64,000 nt of DNA from Anaeromyxobacter sp. (GTDB taxonomy: Bacteria > Myxococcota > Myxococcia > Myxococcales > Anaeromyxobacteraceae). Of the stretch, positions 1-39,615 are shown piece by piece; positions within the stretch are counted from its first letter, which is position 1; the number at the start of each line of letters is the position of its first letter. Location of the stretch: NCBI GenBank assembly GCA_049840735.1, contig JASGJN010000022.1, forward strand, positions 864,001 to 928,000, written 5' to 3'. Below the pieces are notes generated by a model that was not told where the DNA came from, ran no database searches, and saw only the letters and a program-made list of their open reading frames with translations. Both the position numbers and the translations under genes were made by a program.

Positions 1-1
1 T

Positions 2-328
2 GACGCGGCCGAAGTGTCCAGTATCGAAGTGGCACTCGGGGCCGCAGCAGTGGAGTGTCCGGTTCATTCGGTCAAGGCGACCGTCGGGCATTGTATGGGA
101 GCCGCCGGCGCCATCGAAGCCGTCGTTGCCGTGTTGTCCCTGGAACGACAGTTGGTTCCGCACACCGCTGGGCTTACGGATTGTGAGTTCGATGGTCGCG
201 TCCGCTGCGTCCGAGGCGAGCCCCTGCACGTCGAAGCGGACTTTGCCTTGAGCACGAGCTTCGGCTTCGGCGGCAACGACGCGGCGATTCTGCTCGCGCA
301 TCCCCGCGTCTTCGAGGAAGGCACTTGA
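2..328 (+). CDS. fabF: beta-ketoacyl-ACP synthase (FabF/KS-alpha type), C-terminal part; 5' end outside window
   Basis: Frame open from position 2 (DAAEV...); motifs SVKATVGHCMGAAGAIEA and STSFGFGGND typical of KS C-terminal domain. Confidence 0.85.
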   Translation, partial: DAAEVSSIEVALGAAAVECPVHSVKATVGHCMGAAGAIEAVVAVLSLERQLVPHTAGLTDCEFDGRVRCVRGEPLHVEADFALSTSFGFGGNDAAILLAHPRVFEEGT

Positions 329-1257
329 CGATGGGTCGAAGGGAACTGGTCGATTCGACTCGGAGCACTCCGCTGCTCCATGACGTGTGGGTGACCGGAG
401 GCACCCTATTGCTCCCCGAAAGGGGTAAGGGATGCTTTTCGTCACTTTCTACCATCGATCCGAGTGCCCTTCTCGGTCCCGAGCGGACTCGTCGACTGGA
501 TCCGCTCAGCCAGTTCGCCCTGCTCGCGACGGAGCGGGCGCGCCGGACGGCGTTGCTTCCTCGTCAGAGCTCGGTCGAAATTCGTGAGCGGGAGGGCGTC
601 GTGGTCGGAACTGCCTTTGGCGCTACGGTGACCAGTGTTCGCTACGCCAAGCGTCTCGTTAAGGCCGGTCCGGCGGGCACCAACCCCATCGACTTTCCTG
701 ATTCGATCGACGGGGCTGCTGCGGCTCACGTCGCGCTCGATCTGGGGCTCCAAGGGCCGAGCCTGACATTCGTGGATGGCCGCGACAGTGCCGCGTCGGC
801 GTTGGTCGTCGGGGCTCGTCTGATTGCGACCGGGCGAGCCGAGCGCGTGCACGTCGTGGCTGGCGACGTGCTCGACGAGGTGTTTCAGCGTGCATTGACG
901 TCGGATGTCGGGATTGAGTTCGGCGACGCCGTTGCCGCTTGGGTGCTCGAGCGCGCCGAATTGCGACCTGCGGTGCAAGGAACCGTCGCAATCGACGGGC
1001 TCACCTCGGCATTCGGTGTGCGAGACGACGGATCTGGCTTGGCGAAGGAACACTCGTACTTCGGAGGCCAGGCCGATCCCGCTGGGGTCCTCGACGTAGC
1101 GGGGGCATGGCTCCAGGCTCGAGGCCCGATGGGCAGCGCCGATGACCCGTGGCAACCTGATGGGATGACTGACTTCGACGGTGCTCCTGCCGAAGCGCCG
1201 ATCCCGAACGGCACCTATCGAGCTTTGCGCTTCCGTCCCGTCGTTGCGCGAAGGTGA
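325..1257 (+). CDS. chain-length-factor-like (non-catalytic) ketosynthase
   Basis: RRLDPLSQFA, GVVVGTAFG, PIDFPDSI, LGLQGPSLT match KS N-terminal domain; active-site Cys position reads GRDS; overlaps the upstream KS stop. Confidence 0.75.
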   Translation: MTMGRRELVDSTRSTPLLHDVWVTGGTLLLPERGKGCFSSLSTIDPSALLGPERTRRLDPLSQFALLATERARRTALLPRQSSVEIREREGVVVGTAFGATVTSVRYAKRLVKAGPAGTNPIDFPDSIDGAAAAHVALDLGLQGPSLTFVDGRDSAASALVVGARLIATGRAERVHVVAGDVLDEVFQRALTSDVGIEFGDAVAAWVLERAELRPAVQGTVAIDGLTSAFGVRDDGSGLAKEHSYFGGQADPAGVLDVAGAWLQARGPMGSADDPWQPDGMTDFDGAPAEAPIPNGTYRALRFRPVVARR

Positions 1258-1265
1258 GGCGATCC

Positions 1266-2753
1266 ATGGCACGACTTCTGCTCATCGAGGCGAACGACAA
1301 TGCGCGTTGGGTTGGCGCGCGCGTCGGGCCAAAAGTGCACGTATTGCCCATTGCACTCATGGGGCTCGCCGCATTTGCAAAGCAGCTCGACCCCACACTC
1401 GAAGTCCGGCTCGTGGAGACGTCCCTCGATGCAACGGACGACGAGACACTCGCCAGGATCATTCGCGAATTCGAACCGACGTGGATCGGGATCCGCAGTA
1501 TCAGCTTGTTCGTCGACGAAGTGCGGCGCGTCGTGCGTGTGGCCAAAGCGACGTCGACAGCGGACGTGCTGCTCGGGGGGCCCATCTCGACGGCCCTCAA
1601 GGAAGGGATCTTCGAAGCCGTACCGGAGCTCGATTATGCCGCGGTGAACGAGGGCGAGCCGGTCATCGAGGCGCTGGTCCGCGGTACGCGATTGTCACTC
1701 ATTCCGGGGGTGCTCTCGCGTCACGCGCAGGGGCTCAAGGCGCACAAGTCGGCGAGCTTGCCGCGGGATCTCGACCCGTTGCCCTTGGCTGATTATTCCC
1801 TCGTCGACTTGGATCGTTACTCGCACCAGTTGAGCTACGCCTACAATCAACGTCGGCAGGGTGTTCTGGTCACGAGCCGAGGCTGCCCGTATTCCTGCAC
1901 GTACTGTTTTCAGATCTCCGAAACGCCCGTTCGGCTCCACTCCGCGGAGCGAGTGGTCAGTGATATCGAGCGCATGCACGGTGAATTCGGGATTTCCGAC
2001 TATTACGTCGTCGACGACGTGTTCAACCTCAATCGCAAGCGTGCGCTCGACGTGTTTGCTCGCCTCGAACGTGCCAAGCTCGGTGTGCGGCTCTACTTCG
2101 TCAATGGCTTGCGTGTCGACCTATGTGACGAGACCTTCGTCGAGAGCATGGTGCGCGCGGGGACCGTGTGGGTCACGTACGCGATCGAGTCTGCGTGTCC
2201 ACGGATCCAGAAGCTCATTCGCAAGCAGCTCGATTTGGACCACGCGCGACGCATCATCAACTTCAGTCAAAAACAGGGGATCGTCGTCAACGTCAACACG
2301 ATGTTTGGCTTTCCCACCGAGACGAAGGAAGAGGCGGACCAGACTCTCGACTACATCGGCAGTCTCGATCATCCGTCGCTGTTGCCCTACCATTTCAATT
2401 TGCGTGGCTACCCTGGCTGCGAAATCGTCGAACAGGCGGACGCGGCTGGATGGTCGCGCGATAGCTTCCTTGCCACGGGCTTCGGCAGCTATGGGGATTT
2501 GCCTGCCGGATCACCCACGTTCTCGCGCCGGGACATGATGGCGCACATGCTTTCATTTCATGAGCGGTTCGGTCTGGCCAATCGCAGGCACCTGGCCTAC
2601 GCCATTCGAACCCTCCAGGGAATCGGCTACTCGGAACGCGAGCTCCTCGACATGTACACCGTGCTCAACAATCGCAAGGTGCACTCGCTAAGCGACCTTA
2701 CCACGGAGCCAACGAACCAAATTCACAGGAGCGACTCCATTCGCTGGGCGTAA
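1266..2753 (+). CDS. cobalamin-binding radical SAM enzyme (class B methyltransferase-like)
   Basis: N-terminal B12-binding-like domain (PIALMGLAA...LLGGP), SRGCPYSCTYC, VDDVFN, IES, MFGFPTET. Confidence 0.88.
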   Translation: MARLLLIEANDNARWVGARVGPKVHVLPIALMGLAAFAKQLDPTLEVRLVETSLDATDDETLARIIREFEPTWIGIRSISLFVDEVRRVVRVAKATSTADVLLGGPISTALKEGIFEAVPELDYAAVNEGEPVIEALVRGTRLSLIPGVLSRHAQGLKAHKSASLPRDLDPLPLADYSLVDLDRYSHQLSYAYNQRRQGVLVTSRGCPYSCTYCFQISETPVRLHSAERVVSDIERMHGEFGISDYYVVDDVFNLNRKRALDVFARLERAKLGVRLYFVNGLRVDLCDETFVESMVRAGTVWVTYAIESACPRIQKLIRKQLDLDHARRIINFSQKQGIVVNVNTMFGFPTETKEEADQTLDYIGSLDHPSLLPYHFNLRGYPGCEIVEQADAAGWSRDSFLATGFGSYGDLPAGSPTFSRRDMMAHMLSFHERFGLANRRHLAYAIRTLQGIGYSERELLDMYTVLNNRKVHSLSDLTTEPTNQIHRSDSIRWA

Positions 2754-2760
2754 TCGGACT

Positions 2761-2896
2761 CGGCGTCGTTCGGCGTCGTTCGGCGTCGTTCGGCGTCGTT
2801 CGGCGTCGTTCGGCGTCGTTCGGCGTCGTTCGGCGTCGTTCGGCGTCGTTCGGCGTCGTTCGGCGTCGTTCGGCGTCGTTCGGCGTCGTTCGGCGT
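2761..2896. repeat. perfect 10-bp tandem repeat (CGGCGTCGTT) x13 plus partial copy
   Basis: Read directly; lies between convergent radical SAM and carrier-protein genes. Confidence 0.97.
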
Positions 2897-2963
2897 GACC
2901 GATTGGGCCTGCGCACATGGTCGACCGTGACGGCTACTCGCGTCTCTCGACTCGATTGCCGAT

Positions 2964-3224
2964 TCAGCTGCTCTTTGCTGCGGAGCTGCGCTTCGTTTGC
3001 ACGAGTTCGACGATGAGGTTCAAGGTGTCGAGTCTGCCATCGACGATATCCATCGAATCGACGTCGATATCGAACTGCTTTTCCAGGAAAAGCACCAACT
3101 TCAGGGTCGCGACGGAATCCAGCAAGCCTGAGGAAATGAGCGGTTGCTCTGGGTCGAGAGCGTCTTTCGATTCGCCGCTGAAGAATTCGTTGAGGAGGTA
3201 GGTTCGAACGAGATCGAGGGTCAT
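2964..3224 (-). CDS. acyl/peptidyl carrier protein
   Basis: 86 aa acidic protein with GLLDSV phosphopantetheine motif and LEKQFDI helix; follows adenylation gene. Confidence 0.88.
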   Translation of the reverse strand: MTLDLVRTYLLNEFFSGESKDALDPEQPLISSGLLDSVATLKLVLFLEKQFDIDVDSMDIVDGRLDTLNLIVELVQTKRSSAAKSS

Positions 3225-3247
3225 GGCAAGGATCGGACGGAGCGCGC

Positions 3248-4810
3248 TCAAGCGACGTTTCCGGCAGTCTGCCCCTGAAGAGCCAGCAAATCCAGTTTTC
3301 CCGTGAGTGTCCGCGGGAGTTCGGCCACGATTTCGACCGCATCCGGTACGAGATATGGCGGCAGACAGGTGCCCGAGTGGGCTTTCAGTATCAAGGGTGA
3401 CGCTTGGGCTCCGTCGCGCAGCGTTACTGCGGCGACGACACGTACCGTGTCGGAATGACGCTCCGCGTAGGCGACGACCTCTCGCACCGCGGCGTGACGT
3501 CGCAGCGCCGCTTCGATCTCACCGAGTTCCAAACGGTAGCCACGACGTTTGACCAGGCGATCACGTCGGCCCAGAAACCAATATCGACCCGATTCGTCTT
3601 GCTTCGCGAAGTCCCCGGTTCGGTAAAATCGTCGTAAATCGCCTGCGATTCTGCTCGGCGCGAAGGCTCGCTCACTCAATTCGGGTTTGCCGAAGTAACC
3701 CGTCATCAGCTGTGGCCCGGCGACGTAGATCTCGCCCGCTTCTCCTTGGCGCACCGGGTTGCCTTGCTCGTCACGCAGCTCGACGTCGAGGTGTTCGCAG
3801 GAAATCCCTATAGGAACTGCGGTTGCGTCCTCGGCGGGGAGCTCGGTCAGAGCGTGATACGTGCAAACGTTCGTTTCCGTGGGACCAAATAGATTGAAGA
3901 AGCGCGCGGAAGAAAGCGCTTGCATCGCTTCGCGCAGGGCGGGGATCGGAAATGGTTCGCCCGCATAGAGGACCCGTTCGAGTGGCGAGGTCGTACTCGT
4001 GCGCCATGCACCATCGGACACGAGTCGCTCGATCGTCGATGGAACCGCGTAGAGCGTCGTAATATCGCAACGCGACAGCCACGCGACCAGGTCCTTTGGG
4101 TGCAAGAGCCGCTCTTGCGACACGAGCACCATGGTGGCGCCCGCGCTCAGGGACGCGAATAGGTCGAAGATGGACAGGTCGAAGGACAGTGGGGCAAAAC
4201 TTGCCACCCTGTCGGTCGCGTCGAGTGCGAAACAGGAAACGGACCAATCCACGAACGCCGTTGCGGCACGGTGCGAGATCTCAACGCCTTTGGGGTGCCC
4301 CGTGGTGCCGGACGTATAAAGAATATAGGCCGCATCGTCGGGGGGAACCTCCGTGGTGAGCCTCATCGCGTCGTCGGATGGGGTCGACGTCGCCTCTCTT
4401 CGATGAGCGTCGGTGAACGCGTCGGACAACGAGATGACTTCAGGTACCGTTGCGCAAAGCTCGGGGGCACTCGAGCGAATGCGCGACAACAAGCTCGGTG
4501 ACACGAGCCAAGCCCGTGGCGCACAATCCTCGATGATCTGTGCAATCCGAAGCCGGGGAGCGCGCGGATCGATGGGTACGTATGCGGCGCCGAGCATCAG
4601 AATCGCAAGTATGGCGGAGATCGCGTCCGCGTCCTTGTGGACCAAGAGCGCGACGCGCGTGCGTGGCCGAACTCCGCTAGCCCAAAGCGTTCGCGCGACG
4701 AGCTTCGCCCGCATCAGGAGTTCACCGTAAGTGATTTGCGTCGCGCCATCGTCGATAGCAATCCGCGACGGCTGGCGTTCACATCCTTCGAGGAATCGAC
4801 GAAGTAACAT
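3248..4810 (-). CDS. stand-alone amino-acid adenylation enzyme (PltF/RedM/CloN4-like, predicted L-proline)
   Basis: YILYTSGTTGHPKG, FDLSIFD, NLFGPTETNVC, YRTGD, LPRTLTGKLD; ATG at 4810 overlaps upstream TAA (TAATG). Confidence 0.88.
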   Translation of the reverse strand: MLLRRFLEGCERQPSRIAIDDGATQITYGELLMRAKLVARTLWASGVRPRTRVALLVHKDADAISAILAILMLGAAYVPIDPRAPRLRIAQIIEDCAPRAWLVSPSLLSRIRSSAPELCATVPEVISLSDAFTDAHRREATSTPSDDAMRLTTEVPPDDAAYILYTSGTTGHPKGVEISHRAATAFVDWSVSCFALDATDRVASFAPLSFDLSIFDLFASLSAGATMVLVSQERLLHPKDLVAWLSRCDITTLYAVPSTIERLVSDGAWRTSTTSPLERVLYAGEPFPIPALREAMQALSSARFFNLFGPTETNVCTYHALTELPAEDATAVPIGISCEHLDVELRDEQGNPVRQGEAGEIYVAGPQLMTGYFGKPELSERAFAPSRIAGDLRRFYRTGDFAKQDESGRYWFLGRRDRLVKRRGYRLELGEIEAALRRHAAVREVVAYAERHSDTVRVVAAVTLRDGAQASPLILKAHSGTCLPPYLVPDAVEIVAELPRTLTGKLDLLALQGQTAGNVA

Positions 4811-5835
4811 TAGTGCTCCCGCTGCATCAAGGTCACTCCCCAAGAGAAGCCGCTGCCGGCCGCGAGCCACGCGCTGTGGACCGTCGAGCCACCATCCTGT
4901 CGCTGCAACCAAGCTTCGGCGTTGATGAGCAGATCGCTTGCGAATGCGTGCCCCAGGTGTTTCGGTCCGGGGCCGATGAGCCGAGTCGAATCCACACCCA
5001 TGCCTCGGGCGATGCTCGCCCGATTCGAGCTCAGTCGTGTTCGGATAAACGTAGTCGAGATCGGGGATGCTCTCGAACCTGGCCGCTTTGCACGCGCGCG
5101 AGAGCAGACGATTCAACATGACGAAGTGGATCGGTAGGATGGACTGTTCGAAGGTGCGTCCATCGAGACTCATGCCACCGTCCTCGACGACGAGCACGTC
5201 TGCGAACCTGCCGTGCTGCTGAGTCGCGATTGCGAGGATCTTTGCAAGCCGGTTGGGGTTTTCCTCGGCGCGGCCGACGATCATGGCGGACGCTGCGTCC
5301 GCCATGATCGAGACGGGCAAACACAGTCTGCCGTTGTCGGGCGCTCGATCCGACGCAACCAAGAGAACGTACGAAATATCTCGTCGTGAGCTCAGGAAAG
5401 CGTCCACGAGGAGTAAAGCGAAGTGTAAACCAGCACATCCCGAGCCACGTGTGCCGAGCGCGAGCGCCTCGGAAGCGCCGAGTCGACCTTGAAGGGCGTG
5501 TGCCAACGACCAGATCCTGGGCGAATCCGCTGAGAATGTCGAAAATCGACGATGAGTCCGAGCTGATGCGGTTCGAGCTGCGCTTGCCTGAGGGCGCGCT
5601 TCGCCGCCGATTCGGCGTGTTCCAACGAACTCAGCTCGTCCATGCGAGCGACGTCGAAGATGCCCAGGTTGTCGAGGAGCCTGGTTCGAAGTCCCGGGGA
5701 AAGCGAGTTGAGTTGCGTTTCCTTGCGTTGCCGCTCTGCGTCGAAAACCCGAGCCACCGGGATGCGACCTTCCGGGACGCTGAGACCTTCTCCAAGTAAG
5801 ACGAGGTTCGAGGGGACGGCTGGCGACACGGGCAA
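4810..5835 (-). CDS. 3-oxoacyl-ACP synthase III (FabH)-like acyltransferase, two frameshifts (~5543, ~5024)
   Basis: Joining ORFs 5392-5835, 3248-5506 (5' part) and 4810-5001 gives a KAS III-length protein with GSGCAG, MADAASAM, GHAFASD, AAGSGFSWG. Confidence 0.8.
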
Positions 5836-5983
5836 TGGCCTAGCACCCCCAAAAGCGCGGTGGCAATTTGGGGGTAGAAGCCGGCAAAAATCGCCGGAAA
5901 TCGGGCAGAGGCGGAAGGTTTTGCACGTGCGTCGAGGCAGGGGACTTGTGAATGGTATTCACCGACTCTAGGCAAAGTGCCCC

Positions 5984-6925
5984 ATGAGGATCGATCTAGC
6001 AGACAAGCGCGTGATTGTCGCGGGCGTTGCCGACGACGGAGGTTTTGGGTTCGCCATCGCCAAGGCGTTTGCAGAAGCGGGGGCGAAGGTCAATGTCGCG
6101 ACCTGGCCACCCGCGATGACCGTGTTCGAGAAGTTGTGGGAGCGAGGGAAGTTCGACGAGTCACGTCAACTCGAGCGCGGTGGCTTGCTCGAGTTCGAGA
6201 ACGTGTTTCCCTTGGACGCCACTTTCGACGAATGGAGCGACGTGCCCGAAGAGGTGCGTCAGAGCCGACGTTACGCCGGTCGAGGCGATTTTACCATCGA
6301 AGGTCTCGTCGATTCGGTGGAACGCGCTTACGGCAAGAACTCGATGGATGTGGTCGTACATTGCCTGGCGAACGGTTCCGAGGTGAATCGACCGCTCATG
6401 GACACATCGCGCAAGGGGTACCTCGGTGCGATCGGCGCGAGTGCATATTCGAACGTGTCCATGGTCAGTCGCTTTGCTCCGTTGATGCGAGCTTCGAGCA
6501 GCTTCTTGTCGCTGAGCTATCTCGCCAGTGAGCGCGTGGTGCCCCTCTATGGTGGCGGAATGTCGGCGGCCAAGGCCGCTCTCGAGTGTGATACCCGTTA
6601 CTTGGCTTTCGAGGCAGGCCGTCGTTATGGCTTCCGTGTCAACGCGATCTCTGCCGGCCCCTACGCTTCGCGTGCAGCCAGCGTCGGGGGATTGGTGCAT
6701 TCCATCGTCGAGTATTACGAGGAGAACTCGCCCCTGCCGTGTCGCGTGACGCCGACTCAAGTGGCGCATGCCGCGCTGTTTCTGTGTAGCCCTCTGGCGA
6801 CCGCGATCACCGGTACGACCCTCCACGTCGATCACGGCCTGCACGTCATGGCGAAGGGTGTAAGTTCCGCAGATCTGGCCTGGCTGGGACTCGACTCTCG
6901 CGAGACCCACGCTGCCGTAGGTTAG
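5984..6925 (+). CDS. fabI: enoyl-ACP reductase (NADH), plant/chlamydial-type FabI
   Basis: GVADDGGFGFAIAK, VHCLANG, YGGGMSAAKAALE, VNAISAGP. Confidence 0.9.
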   Translation: MRIDLADKRVIVAGVADDGGFGFAIAKAFAEAGAKVNVATWPPAMTVFEKLWERGKFDESRQLERGGLLEFENVFPLDATFDEWSDVPEEVRQSRRYAGRGDFTIEGLVDSVERAYGKNSMDVVVHCLANGSEVNRPLMDTSRKGYLGAIGASAYSNVSMVSRFAPLMRASSSFLSLSYLASERVVPLYGGGMSAAKAALECDTRYLAFEAGRRYGFRVNAISAGPYASRAASVGGLVHSIVEYYEENSPLPCRVTPTQVAHAALFLCSPLATAITGTTLHVDHGLHVMAKGVSSADLAWLGLDSRETHAAVG

Positions 6926-7192
6926 GTTACGTCGCTTGCCTCCGCGGTTCCAACGGTGTTGGCGTCGTCGTGAGGGAACTGTCGGACCCGAAGTTGATGA
7001 CGGCTGGGCCGTCGCTGTAGCGCGGTAGCACTTGGTCGCTCACCTCGTGAAAATCGGGCATCTGGAGAGAGTGCTTCCTTTCGTTTCGTAAACACGGTTC
7101 TGTTTGTTGCGGAATTGTGTCCGAAATATGTCGTTTTTCACGGTACAACTTTGTGCTTGCGCAATGACGGCTATCACCAAATCATTGTGCTC

Positions 7193-7957
7193 ATGCCGTC
7201 GCTGCCCGAGCGTAAATCCCAAGTAAGTGCGTCTTCCCCTGGTTTTCGCGCCACTTTGAGTGGGATGGGGGTTGCCGATCTGGTGCAGATGAATTGTCTG
7301 TCCGGGCAGACCTGCAGCGTGAAGGTGACTTCGGAGACGCGGGTTGGCTGGCTCCATTTTGCCCAAGGAAATATCGTTCACGCTTCGACCGGTGCGTGGG
7401 TTGGGGACAAAGCCGTGCTCGAGATCCTTTCGTGGCAGGAGGGCAGTTTCGAGCCCGTCGGCGGGATCTCACCGGAGCGTCGTACGGTCGAAACCGGCTG
7501 GCAGAATCTACTGCTGCTCGCGGCTCAACAGCGGGACGAGGGAAGCCGAGCGACGGTGCTGCCTTTGGAGCGTGCTCACGCGCCGGTCTCGGCGCGGGTT
7601 CCTCGGGGTCTGTCTGGGGGCTCGTCGAGTGGTGTGCGACTGCCCGAAGTGCCGCAAACGCCGCCGCCCGAATCGACGCCGCGAGACCTGGACGTGGCTT
7701 TTGCGCGCATCGACGATTCCGGCAACATCTTGTTTCAACGCGGTGACGTCGAGGACCTCATCGCGCAGGGGGCTTACGCCGCTGAACTCGCTCAAATGAT
7801 TGCCGAGCAGCTCGGACTCGAGCGAGCCACCTCGGTCGAGATGCGCGATTCCCGATTGCGCACCTGGGTCAACGTTGGCGAGCGTGGGGAGCTCGAAATC
7901 ATCCGCGGCAGCGACGAGGCTGCCATGAACGAAATCAAACGACACGTATTTCGGTAG
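7193..7957 (+). CDS. DUF4388 domain protein with C-terminal roadblock-like region
   Basis: FRATLSGMGVADLVQM...GWLHFAQGNIVHA...LSWQEGSF...LLLLAAQQRDE. Confidence 0.75.
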   Translation: MPSLPERKSQVSASSPGFRATLSGMGVADLVQMNCLSGQTCSVKVTSETRVGWLHFAQGNIVHASTGAWVGDKAVLEILSWQEGSFEPVGGISPERRTVETGWQNLLLLAAQQRDEGSRATVLPLERAHAPVSARVPRGLSGGSSSGVRLPEVPQTPPPESTPRDLDVAFARIDDSGNILFQRGDVEDLIAQGAYAAELAQMIAEQLGLERATSVEMRDSRLRTWVNVGERGELEIIRGSDEAAMNEIKRHVFR

Positions 7958-7966
7958 GAGTCCAAG

Positions 7967-8452
7967 ATGTTCGACGCAACGGTCGCCCAGCTCCGCGCAT
8001 TGCGCGACGTCAAAGGGGTCATTGGTTCATTTCTCGTCGATGCGAAGGGGGCGCTCTGCGAGTCCGACATGCCGGCGGCCCTGGGTCAGCGAGAGCTCGC
8101 CGAGGTGAGTTCTCGGGTCACTCGGCTCGTCGAGGCGCTCTCGACCGACGGTACGCCGGATAGCTGCAGCATACGGTGTGTCGAGCACCGCCTCACCGTT
8201 CGTTCATTTGCGCCTCAAGGATACCTGTGCGTTCTTTCGGACGAACACGTCAACTGGCCCGCCTTGCGCATGGCCACCACGCTTTCGATCCGTAAATTGA
8301 GCACGCTTCCGATGTCACCTTGGGTCGACACGACGCAGCAGGATCGCAGTCGCTCGACGGAGCCCGCGATCGCGCCTTCCGAGTCCGTCAAGCCTCCGCC
8401 ACCGACAACGGTACGTCCCGGATTGGTTTATCGCGGTCAGCGCATCAGCTGA
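7967..8452 (+). CDS. roadblock/LC7 (MglB-like) protein
   Basis: LRDVKGVIGSFLVDAKGAL...YLCVLSDEHVNWPALRMA; GGAG RBS; C-terminal YRG motif. Confidence 0.72.
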   Translation: MFDATVAQLRALRDVKGVIGSFLVDAKGALCESDMPAALGQRELAEVSSRVTRLVEALSTDGTPDSCSIRCVEHRLTVRSFAPQGYLCVLSDEHVNWPALRMATTLSIRKLSTLPMSPWVDTTQQDRSRSTEPAIAPSESVKPPPPTTVRPGLVYRGQRIS

Positions 8453-8631: not shown

Positions 8632-10822
8632 TTACTTGACGTTGATGTTGGGTTTGGGCGGTGCGGCCATCCCGCTGCCAATGTGGAAGCTGGTGTGGGG
8701 CGCTTGGTTGTAGGAAGCATTCTGAGCCGATACGTTGGCGCGATATTGGGGATCGTGCATCAGGGTGTAGATGCGCCGTTTGGTCATTTGCGTCGTCGAA
8801 TAGATCCGAAGGCTGCTGCCGCAGAGGAACACGACCTCTTCGCGCCAGTCACCGAAGAGATCGGCACTCAGGTTCGGCACGGACTTGGTGCCGTTGATCG
8901 AGGTGCATCCTGTCGCAGTGAATCCCTGTCCTTCACCGTCGTATTCGGACACGGTATTGCCGTTGAGCAATTCGCGGCTCTCGTCACCGTCCCACCACAG
9001 AAGGAAGTTGCAGGTGCTTGGGTTCCTCCCGACGTTGGCTCCGGTGGTTGCGCTGAATAGGCCTGCACTGTTGACCCAAGCTTCTCCACCGGGGTTGGTC
9101 GGCGAAATGTCGTCCGCCACGCCTCGTCCGGGGCCCTCTTCGGTACTCGTCGGGCCCTTCCAGACGACGGCGCAGGTCTTTGCGTCGCGCATGATGTACG
9201 CAGGGACTCCCGTGGGTTCGGTGGGTTGGAATACTTCCAGACCCGGGCGCGAGGGAATGAAGTCGCCGATATGAAGTGCGTCACCATGGGCTCCGCCCGC
9301 GGTCGTGCAGATCCCCTTGCCGTCGGGGCTGATGGTGAACGAACCTGGGATGATCTCCTGACGGTCGTCGCCGTCCACGTCCGCGACCATCATGCTGTGG
9401 GTTCCCTTGCCGCCATAGGCACCATTACCCGAGGCGGCAGAGTCAAAGGACCAAACCAGGGAGAGCTTGCCGTCGCGGTAGTCGTATGCGCCCAAGGTCG
9501 TCCGCGCGTAATAGCCGCGTTGCATCACGACGCTCGGCTTGCCCGTCGTATCGAGGAAGGCGACGGAAGCGTTATAGCGATCGGAACGATTGCCGTTGGT
9601 ATCACCCCAATTGCCGCTGTTGATAGGCGCGTGATAGTTGATCGTCGCCAGTTCTGCGCCCGTCCGTCCGCTGAATACCGTCACGTACTCCGGACCTGAC
9701 AAGATCTTGCCTGCGCCGTTGCGGTAGTCCTTGGTGTCGTCGTCGGAGGCGGCGGGTCCCGTTTTCAGGAAGCTACCCGTGCCGTCCTTGGTTCCAGGCG
9801 CCGTCTTCACCACGAGTTCGGAGCTCCCATCGCCATCGAGATCGTAGACGACGAAAGGCGTCGTGTGTTCACTTTCTCGGATGTTGCGTCCCAAGTCGAC
9901 GCGCCACATGAACTTGCCATCGAGACGGTAGGCTGCGAACTTGGGTTGTCCCGTGACGCCGTCCTCGAGATGGATCCTTGGGGGATTGCTGCTCTTTCAC
10001 GACGAGTTCGTATTGGCCGTCACCATCGAGATCCCCGGGCGACGCGTCCCCGGCGTTGTAGCCCGAGGGGGTTTTTAGCGGGATAGTGAGGTAGTTTTGC
10101 GGCAGCACACTCGCCGCGGATGGCGTCGTTCGCGATGTCGAGGAGTCGCCATACTCTTTACCCCCGATCACTGCTCGGACCGTGTAGGTTGCCGTACTGG
10201 GCGCACCCTCGTCGACGAAGTTCGTGGAATCGGAGACGGGATTCGCGTTGACCTTGGTCCCGTTGCGATAGACGTTGAAGCCGGTGTCCGGTGCTTCGTA
10301 TCCCATGAGGCGCCAGCTCAGGAAATTGTTCGAGCCGGACCGAATCGCGACCAGGCCGCGGCAGAGGTTCTCCATTTGTACCTTGCCCTGAGCCAAGCTC
10401 TGCACCACGCCGCAAGCGGCTTCGCTGTTGCTGCTGCCGCCCACGCTCGCGCTGCCTCCGCGCCCGACGTCGCTGCCACCGGAGCCGACCGCGCCTCCAA
10501 ATCCCTGCGGCGTCGAGCCGCCGTTGCCTCCCAGGGACGCGGAGCCGCCCGCGCCTCCAAGGGTTCCTTCGGTGGTCATGCTCGAAACACCACCCGAACC
10601 TGGACTTCCCCCCTTTTGCGATTGGCCACCGGAAATACTCGTTCCACCGCGAGCAACGCTTCCGCCATTCGACGGTTTGCCGCCGTTTGCCGTTTCACTC
10701 GGGGTTCCTCCGCTGCCAGGCGAACCGGAATCCGTGCCACTACAGTTTGGTAGTACGGCTGCGACGAGCAAAAGAGACAGACTCGTTTTGGCCACGGCAG
10801 CCGTGGTTACATGCGTGTTCAT
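8632..10822 (-). CDS. rhamnogalacturonan lyase (PL11, YesW/YesX-like) lipoprotein; one frameshift ~9967
   Basis: Lipobox LPNC, Gly-rich linker, QMENLCRGLVA, GDLDGDGQYE, RGYYART, HGDALH, ADLFGDWREE, TLMHDPQYR, YNQAPH. Confidence 0.88.
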
Positions 10823-11208: not shown

Positions 11209-11402
11209 CTTGCGAGCGTGAATCGACCGCGAGCGCGGCGAGCACGGACGTCCTTGCGAGCGTGAATCGACCGCGAGCGCGGCGAGCACGGACGTCCTTG
11301 CGAGCGTGAATCGACCGCGAGCGCGGCGAGCACGGACGTCCTTGCGAGCGTGAATCGACCGCGAGCGCGGCGAGCACGGACGTCCTTGCGAGCGTGAATC
11401 GA
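11209..11402. repeat. perfect 44-bp tandem repeat x4 plus partial copy
   Basis: Unit CTTGCGAGCGTGAATCGACCGCGAGCGCGGCGAGCACGGACGTC at 11209, 11253, 11297, 11341, partial at 11385; downstream of cheB. Confidence 0.95.
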
Positions 11403-11512: not shown

Positions 11513-12553
11513 TCACACGCATGCATCGAGAATGCCTTGCGCGACACGTCCGAGGGAGAGGACTCGGTTGACGGCGCCGAGTTGAACTGCTTCCTTCGGC
11601 ATTCCGTAGACGACGCTCGAGTCCTCGTCTTGAGCGATCGTGAAGGCCGAGTTCTGATGCATCTTGAGCAGCCCTCGTGCGCCGTCGTTGCCCATGCCAG
11701 TGAGGATCACGCCAACCGCATTGCCGCCGGCGTGAGTGGCGAAGGATTCGAAGAGGATGTCGACGGAAGGACAGTGCCGATTGACGCGCTCGCCGGCGTA
11801 GACACGAACACCATAGGTAGCGCCGCTGCGCGTGAGCGCCATGTGGAAGTCACCCGGCGCGATGAGGACGTGTCCGGCCATGAGTCGATCGCCATCGACC
11901 GCCTCCTTCACGCGAACGGCACAAAGGGAGTCGAGCCTCGCCGCGAAGCTCTTCGTGAAACCGGGGGGCATGTGTTGAACGATCGCAACCGGTGGACTGT
12001 CAGGGGGCAGCTGCATGAGGACCTCTCGCAGCGCCTCGGTACCACCCGTGGATGCTCCGATCGCGACGACCTTGAGCGTCGTCTTCAACATCGCCCGAGG
12101 GGCTTTTCGCTCGACGGGATTGGCCGCGCTTCGTTGGCGCGATCGAATCACGCGAGCTCGGGAAACTGCCATGAGCTTCTGGAGGAATTCTTCGGAGCGT
12201 TCGAACATCTGTGTGCGAATGTCGACCTTCGGCTTGCTCACGAAGTCGATTGCTCCGAGTTCGAGCGCACGAAGGGTCGTTGCGCATCCCTCCTCCGTCA
12301 AAGACGAGACCATGAGGACAGGCATCGGATGTAGGTGCATGAGACGCTCGAGGAACGACAAACCATCCATACGTGGCATCTCGACGTCCAATGTCATCAC
12401 ATCGGGCGAGTACTCCTTCACCTTCTTCCATGCGTCGTAGGGGTCTTGCGCCGTGGCGACTACCTCGAAGTCTTCGTCGCCCGAAATGAGCTGTTTTAGG
12501 AGACCGCGCATGAGCGCGGAGTCATCGACGACGAGTACGCGAATTTTCGCCAT
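11513..12553 (-). CDS. cheB: chemotaxis response regulator protein-glutamate methylesterase
   Basis: REC domain plus GASTGG, VQHMP, PSVD, LTGMGNDG with intact Ser-His-Asp. Confidence 0.95.
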   Translation of the reverse strand: MAKIRVLVVDDSALMRGLLKQLISGDEDFEVVATAQDPYDAWKKVKEYSPDVMTLDVEMPRMDGLSFLERLMHLHPMPVLMVSSLTEEGCATTLRALELGAIDFVSKPKVDIRTQMFERSEEFLQKLMAVSRARVIRSRQRSAANPVERKAPRAMLKTTLKVVAIGASTGGTEALREVLMQLPPDSPPVAIVQHMPPGFTKSFAARLDSLCAVRVKEAVDGDRLMAGHVLIAPGDFHMALTRSGATYGVRVYAGERVNRHCPSVDILFESFATHAGGNAVGVILTGMGNDGARGLLKMHQNSAFTIAQDEDSSVVYGMPKEAVQLGAVNRVLSLGRVAQGILDACV

Positions 12554-12716
12554 GCGTATTCAAGAGGTAGGAGAGCGTCTTCGCTAGATGCCAGATCGTA
12601 CGGCGGCGCGACGATTGGACTTCACTCGAATACGTCTTGGACACCCGCAAATGTTTCAGGGTGCGTGGGCTCCACGTTAAGCATTTTCGCGATCTGTCGT
12701 ATCGGTCTAGAGAAAG

Positions 12717-13055
12717 ATGGCGAAGTCCAAGAAGAGAGCGGCTGAAAAACTCGAGTCCGAGAACTCGCTCGTGCTTTCTGGCGATGTAACCGTCTCGGTG
12801 CTCGGAGACCTGCAAAAACGTGCGCTTTTGGCGTTCGAAGCGGGTGGAGCGCTACACGTCGATTGCCGAACGCTCTCGTACTTGGATGCAGCTGGACATC
12901 AGTTCTTGTGTGCGCTCCGGAGGGAAGGTGCGGCCCGTGGCGCTGTGGTTCGCATTACGCCTCCCAACGACTTGGTTTTGGCTGATTCCGGTCGTCTCGG
13001 AATGGGTGGGGTCTTTCTCGAGGCCACCGCCAGGACGAATGGAGAATCCGTGTGA
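12717..13055 (+). CDS. STAS domain protein
   Basis: LVLSGDVTV...VDCRTLSYLDAAGHQFL; overlaps cheY start. Confidence 0.75.
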   Translation: MAKSKKRAAEKLESENSLVLSGDVTVSVLGDLQKRALLAFEAGGALHVDCRTLSYLDAAGHQFLCALRREGAARGAVVRITPPNDLVLADSGRLGMGGVFLEATARTNGESV

Positions 13056-13417
13056 ACAAGACAGCGCTCGTCGTCGATGACTCTGACGTGATGCGACAGG
13101 TGGTCGGATACACCCTCCGGGAGGCGGGATTCGAGGTCACCGAAGCTGCAAATGGAAAGCAGGCCGTCGGCTGTCTCGAGGGAACGGCGTTCAATCTGAT
13201 CGTCACCGACCTGAACATGCCAGAGATGGATGGCGTGACCTTCATTGCTCGCGCTCGAAAACACGCCGCTCATCGATTCGTCCCCATCCTGATGCTCACC
13301 ACCGAGAGCCAAGAATCCAAGCGGCAAGAGGGCAAGGCCGCTGGCGCGACGGCATGGCTCGTAAAGCCGTTCGATCCCGACAAGTTGCTTTCGGTCGTTT
13401 CCAAGGTGGTAAGATGA
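13052..13417 (+). CDS. cheY: single-domain response regulator CheY
   Basis: VVDDS, TDLNMPEMDG, LTTES, WLVKPF. Confidence 0.93.
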   Translation: MNKTALVVDDSDVMRQVVGYTLREAGFEVTEAANGKQAVGCLEGTAFNLIVTDLNMPEMDGVTFIARARKHAAHRFVPILMLTTESQESKRQEGKAAGATAWLVKPFDPDKLLSVVSKVVR

Positions 13418-15390
13418 CCATCGATTCTGCGAGCTTTCGCCTCGCCTTCCTGGAAGAGGCACGCGAGCACGTTGCTACGCTCGAACGGGGGGTGCTCACT
13501 CTCGAGTCCAATCCGACCGACATCGAGACCCTTCGCGAGATTTTCCGTGCGGCCCATTCGATCAAGGGGGCTGCAGGCACACTTGGGTTCGCCCATATTG
13601 CCGAGTTCACCCATCACCTCGAAACGGTGCTCGACGCGATGCGCAATGGTCAACTGACCGTCGACCGGAGTGCCGTGACCGTCCTTCTCAAGGCTGGAGA
13701 CGAGCTGCAGCACCTGCTCGATGGTCTCTCGAGCGGTGAAACGAGGACGGCCGATGCCGTGGCACTCCGTGAACTGGCGTCGAGGGTCGGGCGCAGTGCG
13801 GACTCGGGGGCCCATGCGGTCGTCGCTCCTAGGCCTGTGGAAGAGGTTCGCAAACGAAGACTACGGATTGCCGTCGTACCCACGCAAAAATTCTTCGCTT
13901 GCGGTCTCGATCCGATCTTGCTGTTTCGTGATTTGGAGGGCCTCGGAGAGCTCGAGACGGTCGAGTGCGACTGTTCGAAGGTGCCGCGACTGAGCGAGCT
14001 CGATCCAGTCGAGTGCCATGTCCGCTGGACGGTCGTACTCTCGACGGACGCGAGACGCGCAGACATCGAGGAAGTGTTCGTCTTCGTCGCGGATGACGTG
14101 CAGGTGAGCATCGAAGACGCTCCGTCGGGCACCACCGAACCCGCTGTCGTCGGTAAGGCCGAACCCGCGTCGCACCATCTCCCGACGCACGAATCGTCGA
14201 CGCTCCGTGTCAGTTCGGAGAAGGTGGATTCCATCATCGATCTGGTGGGTGAATTGGTCATCGCGCAATCGATGGTCATGCAGCTGCTTGGACAGAGTGC
14301 CGTTGGACGTTCTCCGCTTTTGCGTGATGCGTTCGACAGCATGGCAAGAAACATGCAGGAGCTGCAGGAGCGGGTGATGGGGATCCGGATGGTTCCGATT
14401 GCCACGTTGTTCGGTCGCTTCTCGCGCATCGTTCGCGACACGGCTGCGTCGCTCGGCAAGACCGTAAATCTCGAGTTGAGCGGCCAGGATACGGAAGTGG
14501 ACAAGGCAGTGGTGGAGCGGCTCGCCGATCCAATCACTCATTTGGTGCGTAACGCATTGGACCACGGGATCGAGACCGACGAGCAGCGTAAGGCTGCCGG
14601 AAAGATTGGTCCAGGCATCATTCGCCTCAGCGGCCAGCACGTCGCAGGTGGCGTCGTCGTCGAGGTTTCCGACAATGGGCGCGGGCTCGACGTCGCGAAA
14701 ATCCGAGAACATGCCGAACGTCGGGGACTCTTGAGCCCGAGCGATCAATTGACGGAGGAGCAGGTTCACGCACTCATCTTCGAACCGGGATTCTCGACTG
14801 CTTCAGAGGTTTCGGATCTCTCGGGTCGCGGAGTGGGCATGGACGTCGTTCGTCGTGACGTCGACGCCCTCAACGGCACCGTGACGGTCTTGACCTCACC
14901 CGGTGTGGGCACCACCGTTCGGATTCGGCTCCCGCTCACCCTCGCGATCCTCGATGGTTTGCTGCTCCGCGTGGGAAGCCAAACCTACGTCGTCCCACTC
15001 CTTGCAGTAACGGAGTCATTTCGGCCATCGCCACAGGCGGTCAAGCGCCTCACCGGGGATGCCTCCGTTGCCATCGTTCGCGAGACGGCCCTGCCGTTGG
15101 TGGACTTGGGCGTCGAGTTAGGGCTCACTCGAGAGCAACGCCGCCCCGAAGACGCGCTCGTCGTCGTCGTGGAAGCGGATGGTCGTCAGGTGGGCTTGGT
15201 CGTCGATGCCCTCGTGGGTCAGTCACAAGTAGTCGTGAAGAGCATCGAGACGCACTTCCGTCGCGTGGATGGGGTGCTTGGGGCCACCATCCTCGGTGAT
15301 GGGAAGGTGGCATTCATCGTTGACGTTTCTGGGCTTGCGAGATTGACGTGGGCCAAACGCTCGCTTTCCGGTTCACCCCGCGCTGCGTGA
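13414..15390 (+). CDS. cheA: chemotaxis histidine kinase CheA
   Basis: FRAAHSIKG (Hpt), LVRNALDHGIE, GFSTA...SGRGVGMDVV, LPLTLAI, C-terminal CheW domain. Confidence 0.95.
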   Translation: MTIDSASFRLAFLEEAREHVATLERGVLTLESNPTDIETLREIFRAAHSIKGAAGTLGFAHIAEFTHHLETVLDAMRNGQLTVDRSAVTVLLKAGDELQHLLDGLSSGETRTADAVALRELASRVGRSADSGAHAVVAPRPVEEVRKRRLRIAVVPTQKFFACGLDPILLFRDLEGLGELETVECDCSKVPRLSELDPVECHVRWTVVLSTDARRADIEEVFVFVADDVQVSIEDAPSGTTEPAVVGKAEPASHHLPTHESSTLRVSSEKVDSIIDLVGELVIAQSMVMQLLGQSAVGRSPLLRDAFDSMARNMQELQERVMGIRMVPIATLFGRFSRIVRDTAASLGKTVNLELSGQDTEVDKAVVERLADPITHLVRNALDHGIETDEQRKAAGKIGPGIIRLSGQHVAGGVVVEVSDNGRGLDVAKIREHAERRGLLSPSDQLTEEQVHALIFEPGFSTASEVSDLSGRGVGMDVVRRDVDALNGTVTVLTSPGVGTTVRIRLPLTLAILDGLLLRVGSQTYVVPLLAVTESFRPSPQAVKRLTGDASVAIVRETALPLVDLGVELGLTREQRRPEDALVVVVEADGRQVGLVVDALVGQSQVVVKSIETHFRRVDGVLGATILGDGKVAFIVDVSGLARLTWAKRSLSGSPRAA

Positions 15391-15404
15391 GGAGAAGGAC
15401 GAAC

Positions 15405-15926
15405 ATGCTTTCAGTTGAAGGTCACGGTACCGTCAGCCGACAGGATCCGTCGAGTGAACATTGCGAAACGCAGTACCTGAGTTTTCCTCTCGGAGACGAA
15501 CGTTTCGCTGTCGAAATCCTGAAGGTTCAGGAGATTCGACCTCTCACAGCGATTACCCCGATCCCGAACACACCCGCTCACATCCGAGGGGTCATCAATC
15601 TGCGGGGGATCATCGTTCCCGTGTTCGATCTCAGGTTGAGGTTCAACCTCGGACGGAGCAGCGACTCACGGTTCGCAATCATCCTGGTGGTAACGATCCG
15701 CGAGCGCATCGTGGGGCTCATCGCCGACGCTGTCCCGAAGGTGCTGACGGTGCGCACGGAGGAAATCGCTCCGGTGCCCGAGTTCGGGCAGCGAGTCGAT
15801 CTGTCCTTCGTGTCGGGTGTTCTCCATCGCAGTCAGGAGCTCGTGCTGCTCCTGGATCTCGAGCACTTGCTCGCCGTCGAGCTCGGTGAGCTCGAGTCTT
15901 CGGACGTGCCCGTGTCTGCCGCGTGA
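15405..15926 (+). CDS. cheW: chemotaxis coupling protein CheW
   Basis: YLSFPLGDERFAV, VQEI, GVINLRGIIVPV. Confidence 0.93.
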   Translation: MLSVEGHGTVSRQDPSSEHCETQYLSFPLGDERFAVEILKVQEIRPLTAITPIPNTPAHIRGVINLRGIIVPVFDLRLRFNLGRSSDSRFAIILVVTIRERIVGLIADAVPKVLTVRTEEIAPVPEFGQRVDLSFVSGVLHRSQELVLLLDLEHLLAVELGELESSDVPVSAA

Positions 15927-15939
15927 GGAAAGGTAGAAT

Positions 15940-17580
15940 ATGCAGTTTTTCGAACGACTCAGCGCAAAGACGAAGGTTCTCTTGGGGTTCGCTCTGATGA
16001 CCCTATTTACCGTCGTGGTCGGCTACGTCGGACTATCGAATGCGAGCCGACTGAATGACAACCTCGACGTGTTGTTCGAACGTGACTTCCGCGGTCTAGC
16101 CGAAATTCGTGAAGCCAACGTTCACATGTTCATCATTGCTAGATCGGTCCGGCAGGCAATCCTAGACAAAGATCCGGAAGCCGTGCGCGCTACCCAGCGC
16201 AAGATCGAGAGCAGCTATCAGATCATGCGAGACGACATCGACCGTGCCATCAAGAACATGATCACGGACGAGGGGCGTCACAATACGGAGCAAGCTCGCA
16301 ATGAGGTCGAAAAATACATGATCGGTGTCCGTGCGAGCACCGAACTCAGCTTGCAAGGCAAGAAAGAGGAAGCCCTTGCCATGCTGAACAAGTACCAAGA
16401 GCATGGCTGGCGTGCCGACGAGCTATTTACCGACGTCTGCAAACGCAAAGAGGTCGTCGGGTCGCAAACCCGTGATGCGGCCGCCGTTCTCTATAAGACT
16501 TCGCGCAACATCGCGCTCACCGTGATCTCGATTGCCGCGGTCCTCGGCGTCATCATCGGACTCTATTTCGCGGGCTGGTTCGGGCGGGCGCTCACCGAAA
16601 CGGCGCAAATCGCGGATTCCGTATCACGGTCTGCCCGCGAACTCGCTGCTGCCACCGAGGAAATTGCGGCAGGTGCTCAGGAGCAGGCGGCCAGTATCGA
16701 AGAAACGGCGTCGACGCTGGAGGAACTGACGTCGACGGTCAAGCAGAACGCCGACAGCGCTCAACAGGCCGCGCAACTTGCCACGGCGAGTCGCGAGACT
16801 GCGGAAAAGGGTGGGAGGATCGTGAGCGAAGCGGTCACTGCGATGAAAGAAGTCAATCATTCGTCCCGCAAGATCGCCGACATCACGACAACGATCGACG
16901 AGATCGCGTTCCAGACGAATATTCTGGCAATCAACGCAGCTGTCGAGGCTGCTCGCGCTGGGGAACAGGGCCGTGGGTTTGCCGTGGTCGCGTCGGAGGT
17001 GCGGAGCCTCGCTGAGCGCTCCGCGTCGGCCGCCAAGGAGATCAAGAGTCTCATCGAAGATTCCGCCTCGAAGATCGAGTCGGGGTATCGTCTCGTCGAG
17101 ACATCCGGATCCGCTTTGGGCGATATCCTGAGCTCGGTCAAACGAGTCACGGACTTCGTTGGCGAAATCGCAGCAGCGTCGCGAGAGCAATCTTCCGGGA
17201 TCGATCAGGTGAACAAGGCCGTGACGCAAATGGATCAAGTGACTCAAGCCAACGCGTCCCAGACCGAAGAGCTGTCGGGGACGACCGAGAGCCTCGCTGC
17301 CCAGGCGGACCGGTTACGCGTCGTTGTCGAGCAGTTCCACCTCACCGCGGAGACCATACGCTCGGAGGTCTACGCTGCACCGGAACGTCGGGCCAGAACG
17401 TCATTCGGCGGCGCCGCAAACCGTGCCGCGACTCGCGTCCGCAGAGGTCCGCCGCCACTGCGTCGGGACGTGGCGAATTCGTCGACGTTTGCGAAGTCCG
17501 ACGCCCCACATGCTGGACGCATGGCAGCAACGGGTACCGATAGTGACGCGGAGTTGGATCGCGCGTTCGAAGAAATCTAG
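15940..17580 (+). CDS. methyl-accepting chemotaxis protein with four-helix-bundle sensor
   Basis: Two TM segments, [31 protein letters not shown]-terminal AFEEI pentapeptide-like end. Confidence 0.93.
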
Positions 17581-17588
17581 GTCGAACG

Positions 17589-25239: not shown

Positions 25240-25693
25240 GCCGGCTTATCAAGCAGTCGGCCTTCGCCTGCGCAAGGTCCAACGGACGCAGCGGCTCCCC
25301 GGAAAGCCCGTGTGGTTACGTTTCCTTTGGGATTTTCGCGATTCGTCTACGCGGCCGTCCGAACGCGGTCACCGGTCGACAACGGGAAGGCGAGTGCTTT
25401 CTCGGCGCGTGCCGCAGACGAACTCGCTGCACGAGAACTCGCGTGGCCTTGGCCGCGCACGTCAATTCTAGTTTTCATCAAGTTCTTCGTTCTGGGTTCA
25501 TCGTCCGATCATTTTTGCCCTCGACGTGACCGATTCGCATCTCGTGAGGCGACAGGTACGCGTGTCGGACGTACCGGCACGATGAAGCCCCAAAGGAGCC
25601 ATGAAGTCGGTCACTCACGGCCTTTCGACGAGAGTCCACGAGCGTCGTGAATCATTCCGTCTATCGCGGATCCTGGGTGCGAGGAGGAACCAA

Positions 25694-29886: not shown

Positions 29887-30004
29887 CGCGGCGCATCTTC
29901 GCCGAACGCGCGGCGCATCTTCGCCGAACGCGCGGCGCATCTTCGCCGAACGCGCGGCGCATCTTCGCCGAACGCGCGGCGCATCTTCGCCGAACGCGCG
30001 GCGC
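29887..30004. repeat. perfect 22-bp tandem repeat (CGCGGCGCATCTTCGCCGAACG) x5 plus partial copy
   Basis: Starts immediately after the stop at 29885, between convergent genes. Confidence 0.96.
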
Positions 30005-39484: not shown

Positions 39485-39615
39485 GCCGGGTCAAGCATTA
39501 CGGGGATCGCGAAAAAGGAAACCCGAAAGTGCGCTTCGGAGGCGTCCGCCCGGCGAATGTAGCGCCGATCTGCGGTATGCTGTCCCTTGGACCACTCCCG
39601 GGGAGCCCATCGAAC

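Follow-up and report, generated by a model that had tools for sequence, protein, structure and literature searches.

We describe a seven-gene biosynthetic module in a stretch of 64,000 nucleotides (the window) on contig JASGJN010000022.1 (C22) of the Anaeromyxobacter sp. assembly GCA_049840735.1 (G000); the window is G000:C22:864001-928000, and positions follow its numbering unless a contig is named. The module is complete and comprises, in order, an acyl carrier protein (ACP1) on the minus strand; a type II ketosynthase (KS), its chain length factor-like partner (CLF) and a cobalamin (B12)-dependent radical S-adenosylmethionine (SAM) enzyme on the plus strand; and a peptidyl carrier protein (PCP), an adenylation (A) enzyme and an acyltransferase resembling β-ketoacyl-ACP synthase III (KAS III) on the minus strand. 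At a probability of roughly one half, we read it as a starter-loading unit joined to type II, aryl-polyene-like elongation, in which proline would be loaded, modified, handed to ACP1 and extended by the KS-CLF pair. The module is real, conserved and apparently undescribed, and is found in uncultured soil bacteria.

The KS enters the window with its 3′ end (1..328, plus strand), and its whole gene (C22:863141-864328, 395 aa, with Cys-His-His) starts about 860 bases left of the window edge, at C22:863141. ACP1, the second carrier (C22:862821-863087, minus strand, 88 aa), lies outside the window, 53 bases upstream of the KS. The KS is followed on the plus strand by the CLF-like partner (325..1257), which alignment shows to be without the catalytic Cys, and by the radical SAM gene (1254..2753, likely start 1266), with CxxxCxxC at 211/215/218. 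Facing them on the minus strand are the PCP-type carrier (2964..3251), the adjoining stand-alone adenylation enzyme of 520 aa (3248..4810) and the KAS III-like gene (4810..5835). The preliminary description, written from the window alone, had KS, a Cys-less CLF and a B12 radical SAM gene converging on KAS III, adenylation and carrier genes, and this is confirmed at the positions just given. It had also considered the cluster cut on the left, which is not the case: the whole KS is followed by ACP1 and then by unrelated genes (a histidine kinase, then a GH8 glycosidase and sigma-factor genes), with no more biosynthetic genes in the 40 kb translated to the left, so the module is complete. The further ACP that it suggested looking for in that direction thus exists as ACP1, but FabG, FabZ, an acyltransferase, a transporter and a prolyl dehydrogenase had no match at E 1e-8 in the 147-kb stretch of low GC content that takes in the whole window.

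Reading of the KAS III gene is interrupted by two frame changes, one near 5542-5545 and one near 5024-5025, so that alignment with two intact relatives (79-82% identical in the middle part) runs in frame -2, then -1, then -2. These frameshifts are likely assembly errors, because they compensate each other and sit at short base runs. An open reading frame of 752 aa that would fuse KAS III to the adenylation enzyme is an artefact; the A gene has its own ATG at 4810, which overlaps the KAS III stop.

Loading of L-proline on the PCP by the A domain is well supported by its predicted binding pocket. At the ten positions that we take to line the pocket, the window protein reads DLFYLALVCK, against DLLYLALVCK in 6O6E and DLFYIAWVCK in 7THN, matching a proline ligase at 9 of 10 residues. 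These two structures, presumably PltF and PigI, are the top two PDB matches for the pocket region, and both are labelled L-proline-[L-prolyl-carrier protein] ligase. The pocket is of the amino-acid (proline) type with its conserved Asp, and this is the sole adenylation gene of the module. All nine Polyangiaceae-type A domains compared carry DL[F/L]YLALVCK and all six acidobacterial ones DL[F/L]YLALV[V/I]K, while one row from a modular nonribosomal peptide synthetase (NRPS; G947) was too poorly aligned to read. The Polyangiaceae code is shared with A domains from dehydrogenase cassettes of Mycetohabitans, Methylocystis and S. clavuligerus, and no mention of the pocket codes was found in the open-access literature.

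The KAS III-like protein has a catalytic triad of the type known from a carrier-to-carrier acyltransferase. Residues C121, H285 and D290 are invariant in 45 of 45 aligned sequences, and the His-Asp spacing (+5) is the same as in ChlB3, whose triad is Cys113/His296/Asp301 and which is reported to move an acyl group from carrier to carrier (PMC9573744). The predicted model (pLDDT 94.6) has ChlB3 and NatS as top folds (Z 33.8, rmsd 2.7-2.8, 305-308 residues aligned), with FabH at Z 33.3. At the positions of FabH that we take to be His244 and Asn274, the KAS III-like proteins align with Asn and His. The likeness to ChlB3, CerJ, DpsC and NatS thus lies in the KAS III fold and the ChlB3-type triad, at an identity of only ~20%. 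No match to this protein was found in the plasmid collection.

The radical SAM protein combines B12-binding and radical SAM domains (model pLDDT 90.9), with TsrM, AprD4 and TokK as best folds at 17-22% identity, and belongs to a distinct uncharacterised subfamily of 386 proteins at E 1e-60 or better (8000 scored), in which identity ranges from 48 to 93% among the 120 matches listed. Residues G79, R81 and F86, in the region of the cobalamin lower face, are invariant in 48 of 48 sequences, with an ambiguous register against TokK, TsrM and OxsB. The protein atlas gives generic family names only, and no CloN6-named model is among the 22 NCBIfam matches. Most cobalamin radical SAM enzymes are described as methylases, with BchE as an oxidative member (PMC9204698). 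As for the elongation proteins, the column of the catalytic Cys is non-Cys in 6 of 6 aligned CLFs, and ACP1, a Pfam PP-binding protein, is 53% and 46% identical to the ACPs upstream of the KS in loci L003 and L164.

The window probably did not come from the organism that the assembly is named for. Contigs of G000 have 71-76% GC, and C22 falls from ~0.73-0.81 to 0.57-0.66 near 825,500, a sharp step of ~0.77 to 0.61, and stays low to the contig end, which makes up the 147-kb stretch. This stretch has its own glnA (59% to the copy on C21) and metK (65% to the copy on C26), and six genes of its left flank are syntenic with a Polyangiaceae metagenome-assembled genome (MAG; L003) at 38-66% identity. 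Given the GC step, the second glnA and metK and the synteny, it is probably a Polyangiaceae-like genome piece mis-joined to another organism's contig, and the remainder of G000 therefore says little on the producer. The radical SAM subfamily was found in 0 of 300 other genomes of the class of G000, including 0 of 23 of its genus. Further low-GC stretches are present at the ends of C4, C13, C19 and C25.

The arrangement is well beyond chance, because other genomes have the same genes in the same order. Among 301 genomes of the Polyangiaceae family, a search for the KAS III subfamily identified 8 (7 candidates scored per genome), and six of the eight (G001, G352, G814, G805, G810 and G791) hold all seven genes in the order of the window. 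As for the other two, the start of a contig cuts inside the radical SAM gene in G799, and in G780 KAS III-A-PCP lies close to the end of one contig while the radical SAM gene is on a different one. Synteny in relatives, on which the preliminary description had staked its proposal, is thus conserved in Polyangiaceae. The genes next to the module vary (purL and NUDIX genes, a sensor kinase, isopropylmalate dehydrogenase), and an alpha/beta hydrolase adjoins KAS III in G352. FabI (5984..6925, plus strand, PRK06300 type, 420 bits against a cut-off of 356) is likewise a neighbour and not a conserved part of the module: it had been taken as dedicated to the cluster, which is not supported, as it adjoins the module in 0 of 8 Polyangiaceae relatives. 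In G352 (beside glycogen genes), in G799 and in G805, a FabI of this type is encoded elsewhere, and a genome-wide search gave none in G001, G814, G810 and G791 (G780 being outside the search).

Co-occurrence of KAS III and the radical SAM gene extends further, as 11 of the 12 genomes with a radical SAM match of at least 48% (L003-L014) also hold KAS III. The exception is a planctomycete MAG with no KAS III or A match genome-wide at the thresholds used; at L011:493-3626 its radical SAM gene is overlapped by a PltA-like halogenase gene (a 46% relative), and an ACP is also present. For 15 of 47 KAS III homologues, the longest contig has the same size as that for one of the 65 best among the 120 radical SAM homologues listed, which becomes 15 of 28 when KAS III homologues on contigs of at least 6 kb are counted; this points indirectly to the same linkage in metagenomes. 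Few genomes have the module (2 of 401 genomes of the order Polyangiales, with 3 candidates scored per genome, and 2 of 301 Acidobacteriota). KAS III occurs in 7 of 201 genomes of the family of the acidobacterium G406, three of which have distant tandem KAS III pairs in another context; these pairs lie with a flavin halogenase (L224:9392-13171, L225:8331-12046, L226:4888-13247), once beside an NRPS of the C-A-PCP-TE type. The preliminary description did not recognise the combination from a characterised pathway, and we found no description of it in the open-access literature; subscription journals, MIBiG and supplements were outside this scope, and genome-mining tables may mention it.

The acidobacterial version of the module apparently sits in an aryl-polyene-like glycolipid cluster. 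The contiguous cluster of G406 (L007 and L186) begins with a flavin halogenase, a polysaccharide deacetylase, a PHP-like gene, the radical SAM gene, a Tes-like radical SAM gene and two more B12 radical SAM genes, continues with a family 2 glycosyltransferase (GT2), a LolA-like gene, a DUF2062-methyltransferase, an MMPL gene, a 1000-aa unknown and FabG, and ends with ACP1, a lipid A-type acyltransferase, KS, CLF, KAS III, A, PCP and an esterase, these last eight all in the same direction. FabZ is present at the matching place in L006, L009, L010 and L086, and the esterase directly follows the PCP in L082, L162, L163, L186, L187, L231, L232 and L247. The A domain is the sole adenylation gene seen in the G406 cluster and occupies the place of the aryl-loading ApeH.

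The Tes-like gene stands right after the radical SAM gene in 16 of 21 loci compared, and scores 327 of 450 bits, with E 1.7e-63 to 7TOL. Its family has been proposed as branched glycerol dialkyl glycerol tetraether (GDGT) enzymes (PMC8941075). This Tes/GDGT-MAS-like gene of ~690 aa (L007:11406-17000, L082:11566-16976 and 14 further loci) often lies with HpnR-like and BchE-like B12 radical SAM genes. It is part of the cluster only in Acidobacteriota; G001 and G352 keep a 56% relative elsewhere, stand-alone after an M3 oligopeptidase (L169:18114-20000, L171:15538-17397), and none was found in G000.

Two known systems resemble the module in part. The CloN1-CloN7 genes of clorobiocin and coumermycin provide counterparts by role, namely a proline-type A enzyme, two carriers, a KAS III-like transferase and a B12 radical SAM enzyme, and clorobiocin uses two carriers with a CloN5-CloN2-CloN1 hand-over, as outlined in PMC11218499, so that the discovery of ACP1 strengthens the analogy. 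In contrast, the module is without the CloN3 dehydrogenase, a CloN7-like gene and aminocoumarin genes, and has a KS/CLF pair instead. Aryl polyene clusters are described as having a core of KS, CLF, ACP, dehydratase, ketoreductase (KR) and transporter, with glycolipid-bound products (10.1101/2020.12.19.423268, PMC8253772). The module shares KS, Cys-less CLF and ACP with these (ape) and with flexirubin clusters, and the acidobacterial version has KR, dehydratase, acyltransferase, glycosyltransferase, LolA-like and MMPL/RND genes in common with them as well. However, no ApeH-type loader or second KS was seen, A, PCP, KAS III and the B12 radical SAM enzyme being there instead, and the Polyangiaceae module is without the KR, dehydratase and transporter (apeQ, apeIP, apeM) that the acidobacterial version has. 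Judging by gene content, the module would work as an elongation unit of the aryl polyene type that is supplied by a CloN-like loading cassette, yet it belongs to neither class, because CloN3 and ApeH are missing and the version of the window has no KR, dehydratase or transporter.

We propose the following pathway. The A domain would load L-proline on the PCP, a step well supported by the pocket, and the B12 radical SAM enzyme would then act on the unit attached to the carrier, most probably methylating a carbon of the ring or of the chain at an early stage. The triad suggests that the proline-derived acyl group is passed on by KAS III from the PCP to ACP1, in the manner of the transfers that CloN2 and ChlB3 carry out between two carriers, and the KS-CLF pair would add malonyl units. 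Since the Polyangiaceae module encodes neither reductase nor dehydratase nor release enzyme, fatty acid synthesis may lend these, or a short product may leave by lactam formation. With FabG, FabZ, a lipid A-type acyltransferase, GT2, a deacetylase, LolA-like and MMPL genes also present in the acidobacterial cluster, the chain there probably ends on an exported glycolipid, with a nitrogen-ring head replacing the 4-hydroxyphenyl of aryl polyene lipids. The proline pocket, the triad and the linkage of the genes can be read directly, and from them we infer the order, direction and product of the pathway.

Several points weigh against this proposal. The product, the enzyme activities and the direction of KAS III transfer are predictions from sequence. 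ChlB3, NatS, FabH, DpsC and OleA fall within 1 Z unit of each other, so the fold does not decide the direction of transfer, and FabH ranks first in the KAS III profile search. The radical SAM protein is 14-22% identical to its best solved matches and falls under every NCBIfam cut-off (best ApyD, 153 of 750 bits); with scores so low, methylation is argued from the enzyme class and not from an orthologue. ACP1 reaches 29.8 bits to NF006617 (PRK09184) against a cut-off of 70, and PRK09185 gives 255 of 407 bits, so that both models pointing to the aryl-polyene-specific subtype are below cut-off. In G003, G1315 and G887 the cluster lacks an A gene, and the search of G887 gave no radical SAM orthologue. 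Finally, a free prolyl amine on a β-keto thioester should, on chemical grounds, cyclise fast, which sits badly with a long chain if the nitrogen is neither blocked nor aromatised.

This last difficulty would be avoided if the module ran in the reverse direction, a reading that we hold to be unlikely but the best of the alternatives. ACP1, KS and CLF would make an acyl chain, which the radical SAM enzyme might methylate, KAS III would N-acylate prolyl-S-PCP, and an N-acyl-proline lipid would be off-loaded by an esterase or acyltransferase. No dehydrogenase would be needed, NatS, whose role is amide-forming, ties for the top fold (Z 33.8), and candidates for off-loading are the esterase after the PCP in the eight loci listed above and the hydrolase by KAS III in G352. 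However, the lipid A-type acyltransferase of the acidobacterial operon follows ACP1 and not the PCP, no other starter-loading enzyme was seen for ACP1, and most Polyangiaceae modules have no off-loading enzyme beside the PCP.

The remaining alternatives concern the state of the proline ring, for which a prolyl dehydrogenase of the PltE/CloN3 type is the relevant enzyme. The query was a dehydrogenase encoded with an ACP and an A enzyme in Mycetohabitans, which in the PDB matches the prolyl-ACP dehydrogenase 4IRN best (374 bits); true prolyl dehydrogenases matched it at 43-52% identity (305-385 bits) and ordinary acyl-CoA dehydrogenases at 29-40% (no more than 236 bits), and the positive controls G000:C11 and G905 were both detected. 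No such gene was found in any fetched cluster locus, nor genome-wide in the eight Polyangiaceae genomes carrying the module, for which completeness is not given and the best listed matches (33-34%, at most 190 bits) are at the level of ordinary acyl-CoA dehydrogenases. An acyl-CoA dehydrogenase ~30 kb from the module in G814, G805 and G810 was rejected as a candidate, the G814 copy being of the ordinary short-chain type. Across both phyla, the dehydrogenase was not found in 17 of the 21 carrying genomes searched, again of ungiven completeness; the other four are among 13 Acidobacteriota (G003, G1012, G1013 and G1315, 45-48% identity), and all four copies lie in separate dehydrogenase-A-PCP cassettes with their own A and PCP. 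Several Acidobacteriota have a cassette of this kind (L256-L260), which in one case comes with a PltA-type halogenase. The preliminary description had proposed a type II chain joined to a methylated or unmethylated prolyl or pyrrolyl unit, with the dehydrogenase beyond the left edge. Linkage of a proline-type A enzyme, PCP, KAS III and radical SAM enzyme to KS/CLF agrees with the first part, but a pyrrole product cannot be assumed, because the dehydrogenase was found neither at any of the fetched cluster loci, nor in the 147-kb stretch, nor in the eight Polyangiaceae genomes.

The radical SAM enzyme may itself replace the flavin dehydrogenase, turning prolyl-S-PCP into pyrrolyl- (or pyrrolinyl-) S-PCP without oxygen for a pyrrolyl-headed chain, which we regard as improbable. 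It agrees with the radical SAM gene travelling with the module while the dehydrogenase was mostly not found, and with the clusters of G003 and G1315, two of the three without an A gene, which occur in genomes holding a separate dehydrogenase-A-PCP cassette. A PltA-type halogenase (577 bits to 5DBJ PltA, 572 to ChlB4) also flanks the cluster in L006, L007, L008 and L010, besides the relative that overlaps the planctomycete radical SAM gene, and PltA-type halogenases act on carrier-bound aromatic acyl groups. Ted, reported as a B12 radical SAM desaturase (10.1101/2025.10.20.683597), and BchE (PMC9204698) are non-methylating precedents, although methylases make up most of the class according to the latter source. 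The association of the halogenase with the module is loose, however, as 6 others among the 201 genomes sampled in the family of G406 have PltA-type genes but no KAS III orthologue, and six carrying genomes (G887, G920, G001, G352, G814 and G002) gave no match to such a gene. The four flanked loci are close kin, with two intact copies 93% identical. The PltA-type genes without KAS III (L237-L245) are 65-81% identical to the halogenase of the cluster; some stand in tandem, and downstream of most come a small gene and an unannotated membrane-protein-like gene. Were the radical SAM enzyme oxidative, which again we think improbable, the products would be pyrrole-headed counterparts of aryl polyene lipids, altered in Acidobacteriota by the Tes-like enzyme, two further B12 radical SAM enzymes and sometimes the PltA-type halogenase.

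Less probable still, and very unlikely in our judgement, is the canonical route, by which a PltE/CloN3-type dehydrogenase encoded elsewhere would make pyrrolyl-PCP and the radical SAM enzyme would be a CloN6-like C5 methylase. The other CloN roles have counterparts here, four of 13 acidobacterial genomes do hold a dehydrogenase, and the ungiven completeness of the carrying genomes leaves room for more; but none was found in the eight Polyangiaceae genomes, and where present it comes with its own A domain and PCP. G000 has a canonical prolyl dehydrogenase with a proline-type A and a hexapeptide-repeat transferase (L193:8929-13003, G000:C11 ~82,900-87,000), but this lies in a 74%-GC part and is probably another organism's. 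There is only a slight chance that the substrate of the A domain is an analogue of proline (hydroxyproline, pipecolate or azetidine-2-carboxylate, hydroxyproline needing less oxidation to pyrrole). In favour of this, the acidobacterial pocket differs at one position and a proline racemase/hydroxyproline-catabolism-like operon converges on the G407 cluster (L187:13940-19986), but this operon was seen at that locus only among those compared and the Polyangiaceae codes equal those of dehydrogenase-cassette A domains.

Other known pathways fit less well than the proposed starter-loading unit. Prodiginine (pig/red) clusters, which the preliminary description had brought in, share a proline ligase and carrier of the same family, but comparison with the pig-type loci L190 and L192 shows that the module is without the PigA dehydrogenase, the PigH aminotransferase/PLP-enzyme, the PEP-utilising condensing enzyme PigC and PigD-type genes, so that reading was dropped. 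In cispentacin biosynthesis, a heterodimeric KS pair is primed through an adenylation enzyme; identity with this system was rejected, all models being below cut-off (AmcF 237 of 325 bits, AmcG 20.5 of 80, AmcB 23.9 of 80), and the window module differs in having two carriers, KAS III and the radical SAM enzyme. The OlsH/OlsI ornithine lipid pathway was also rejected: OlsH is described as GH3-like in a pathway with an ACP (PMC12493201), whereas the module has no GH3 domain and its PCP reaches 70 of 130 bits to NF052616.

The rest of the window holds further features. A perfect 10-bp tandem repeat of 13.7 copies lies between the converging operons (2760..2896); it is one of 21 tandem-array rows in the window and is probably unrelated to the pathway. 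Arrays with units of 10-60 bp, most of them near-perfect, include 2760-2896, 11209-11402, 29887-30004, 51358-51684 and 59859-60045. Genes with DUF4388 and roadblock domains and a chemotaxis operon (CheB, CheY-like, CheA-like, MCP, CheR) occupy 7115-8452 and 11513-19948, and an acyltransferase-carrier-adenylation fusion protein of 946 aa is encoded at 39415-42255. Plant-polysaccharide enzymes are present at 8632-9909, 25601-28111, 30132-32528 and 59472-61427, with two family 11 rhamnogalacturonan lyases, two GH11 xylanases and a BNR-repeat protein.

The usual view of cassettes that turn proline into pyrrole is that ligase, carrier and flavin dehydrogenase always come as a set of three. The module retains the first two in both phyla, but its cluster has a dedicated B12 radical SAM enzyme and lacks the dehydrogenase, and the radical SAM chemistry may be unfamiliar. 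This leads to a sharp, testable question, namely the action of this enzyme on a carrier-bound proline unit, and intact seven-gene copies of ~7 kb in related MAGs make expression feasible. The module also gives context to one group of acidobacterial Tes-like genes, which lies inside an apparent glycolipid cluster, and would extend type II aryl-polyene-like assembly to an amino-acid starter.

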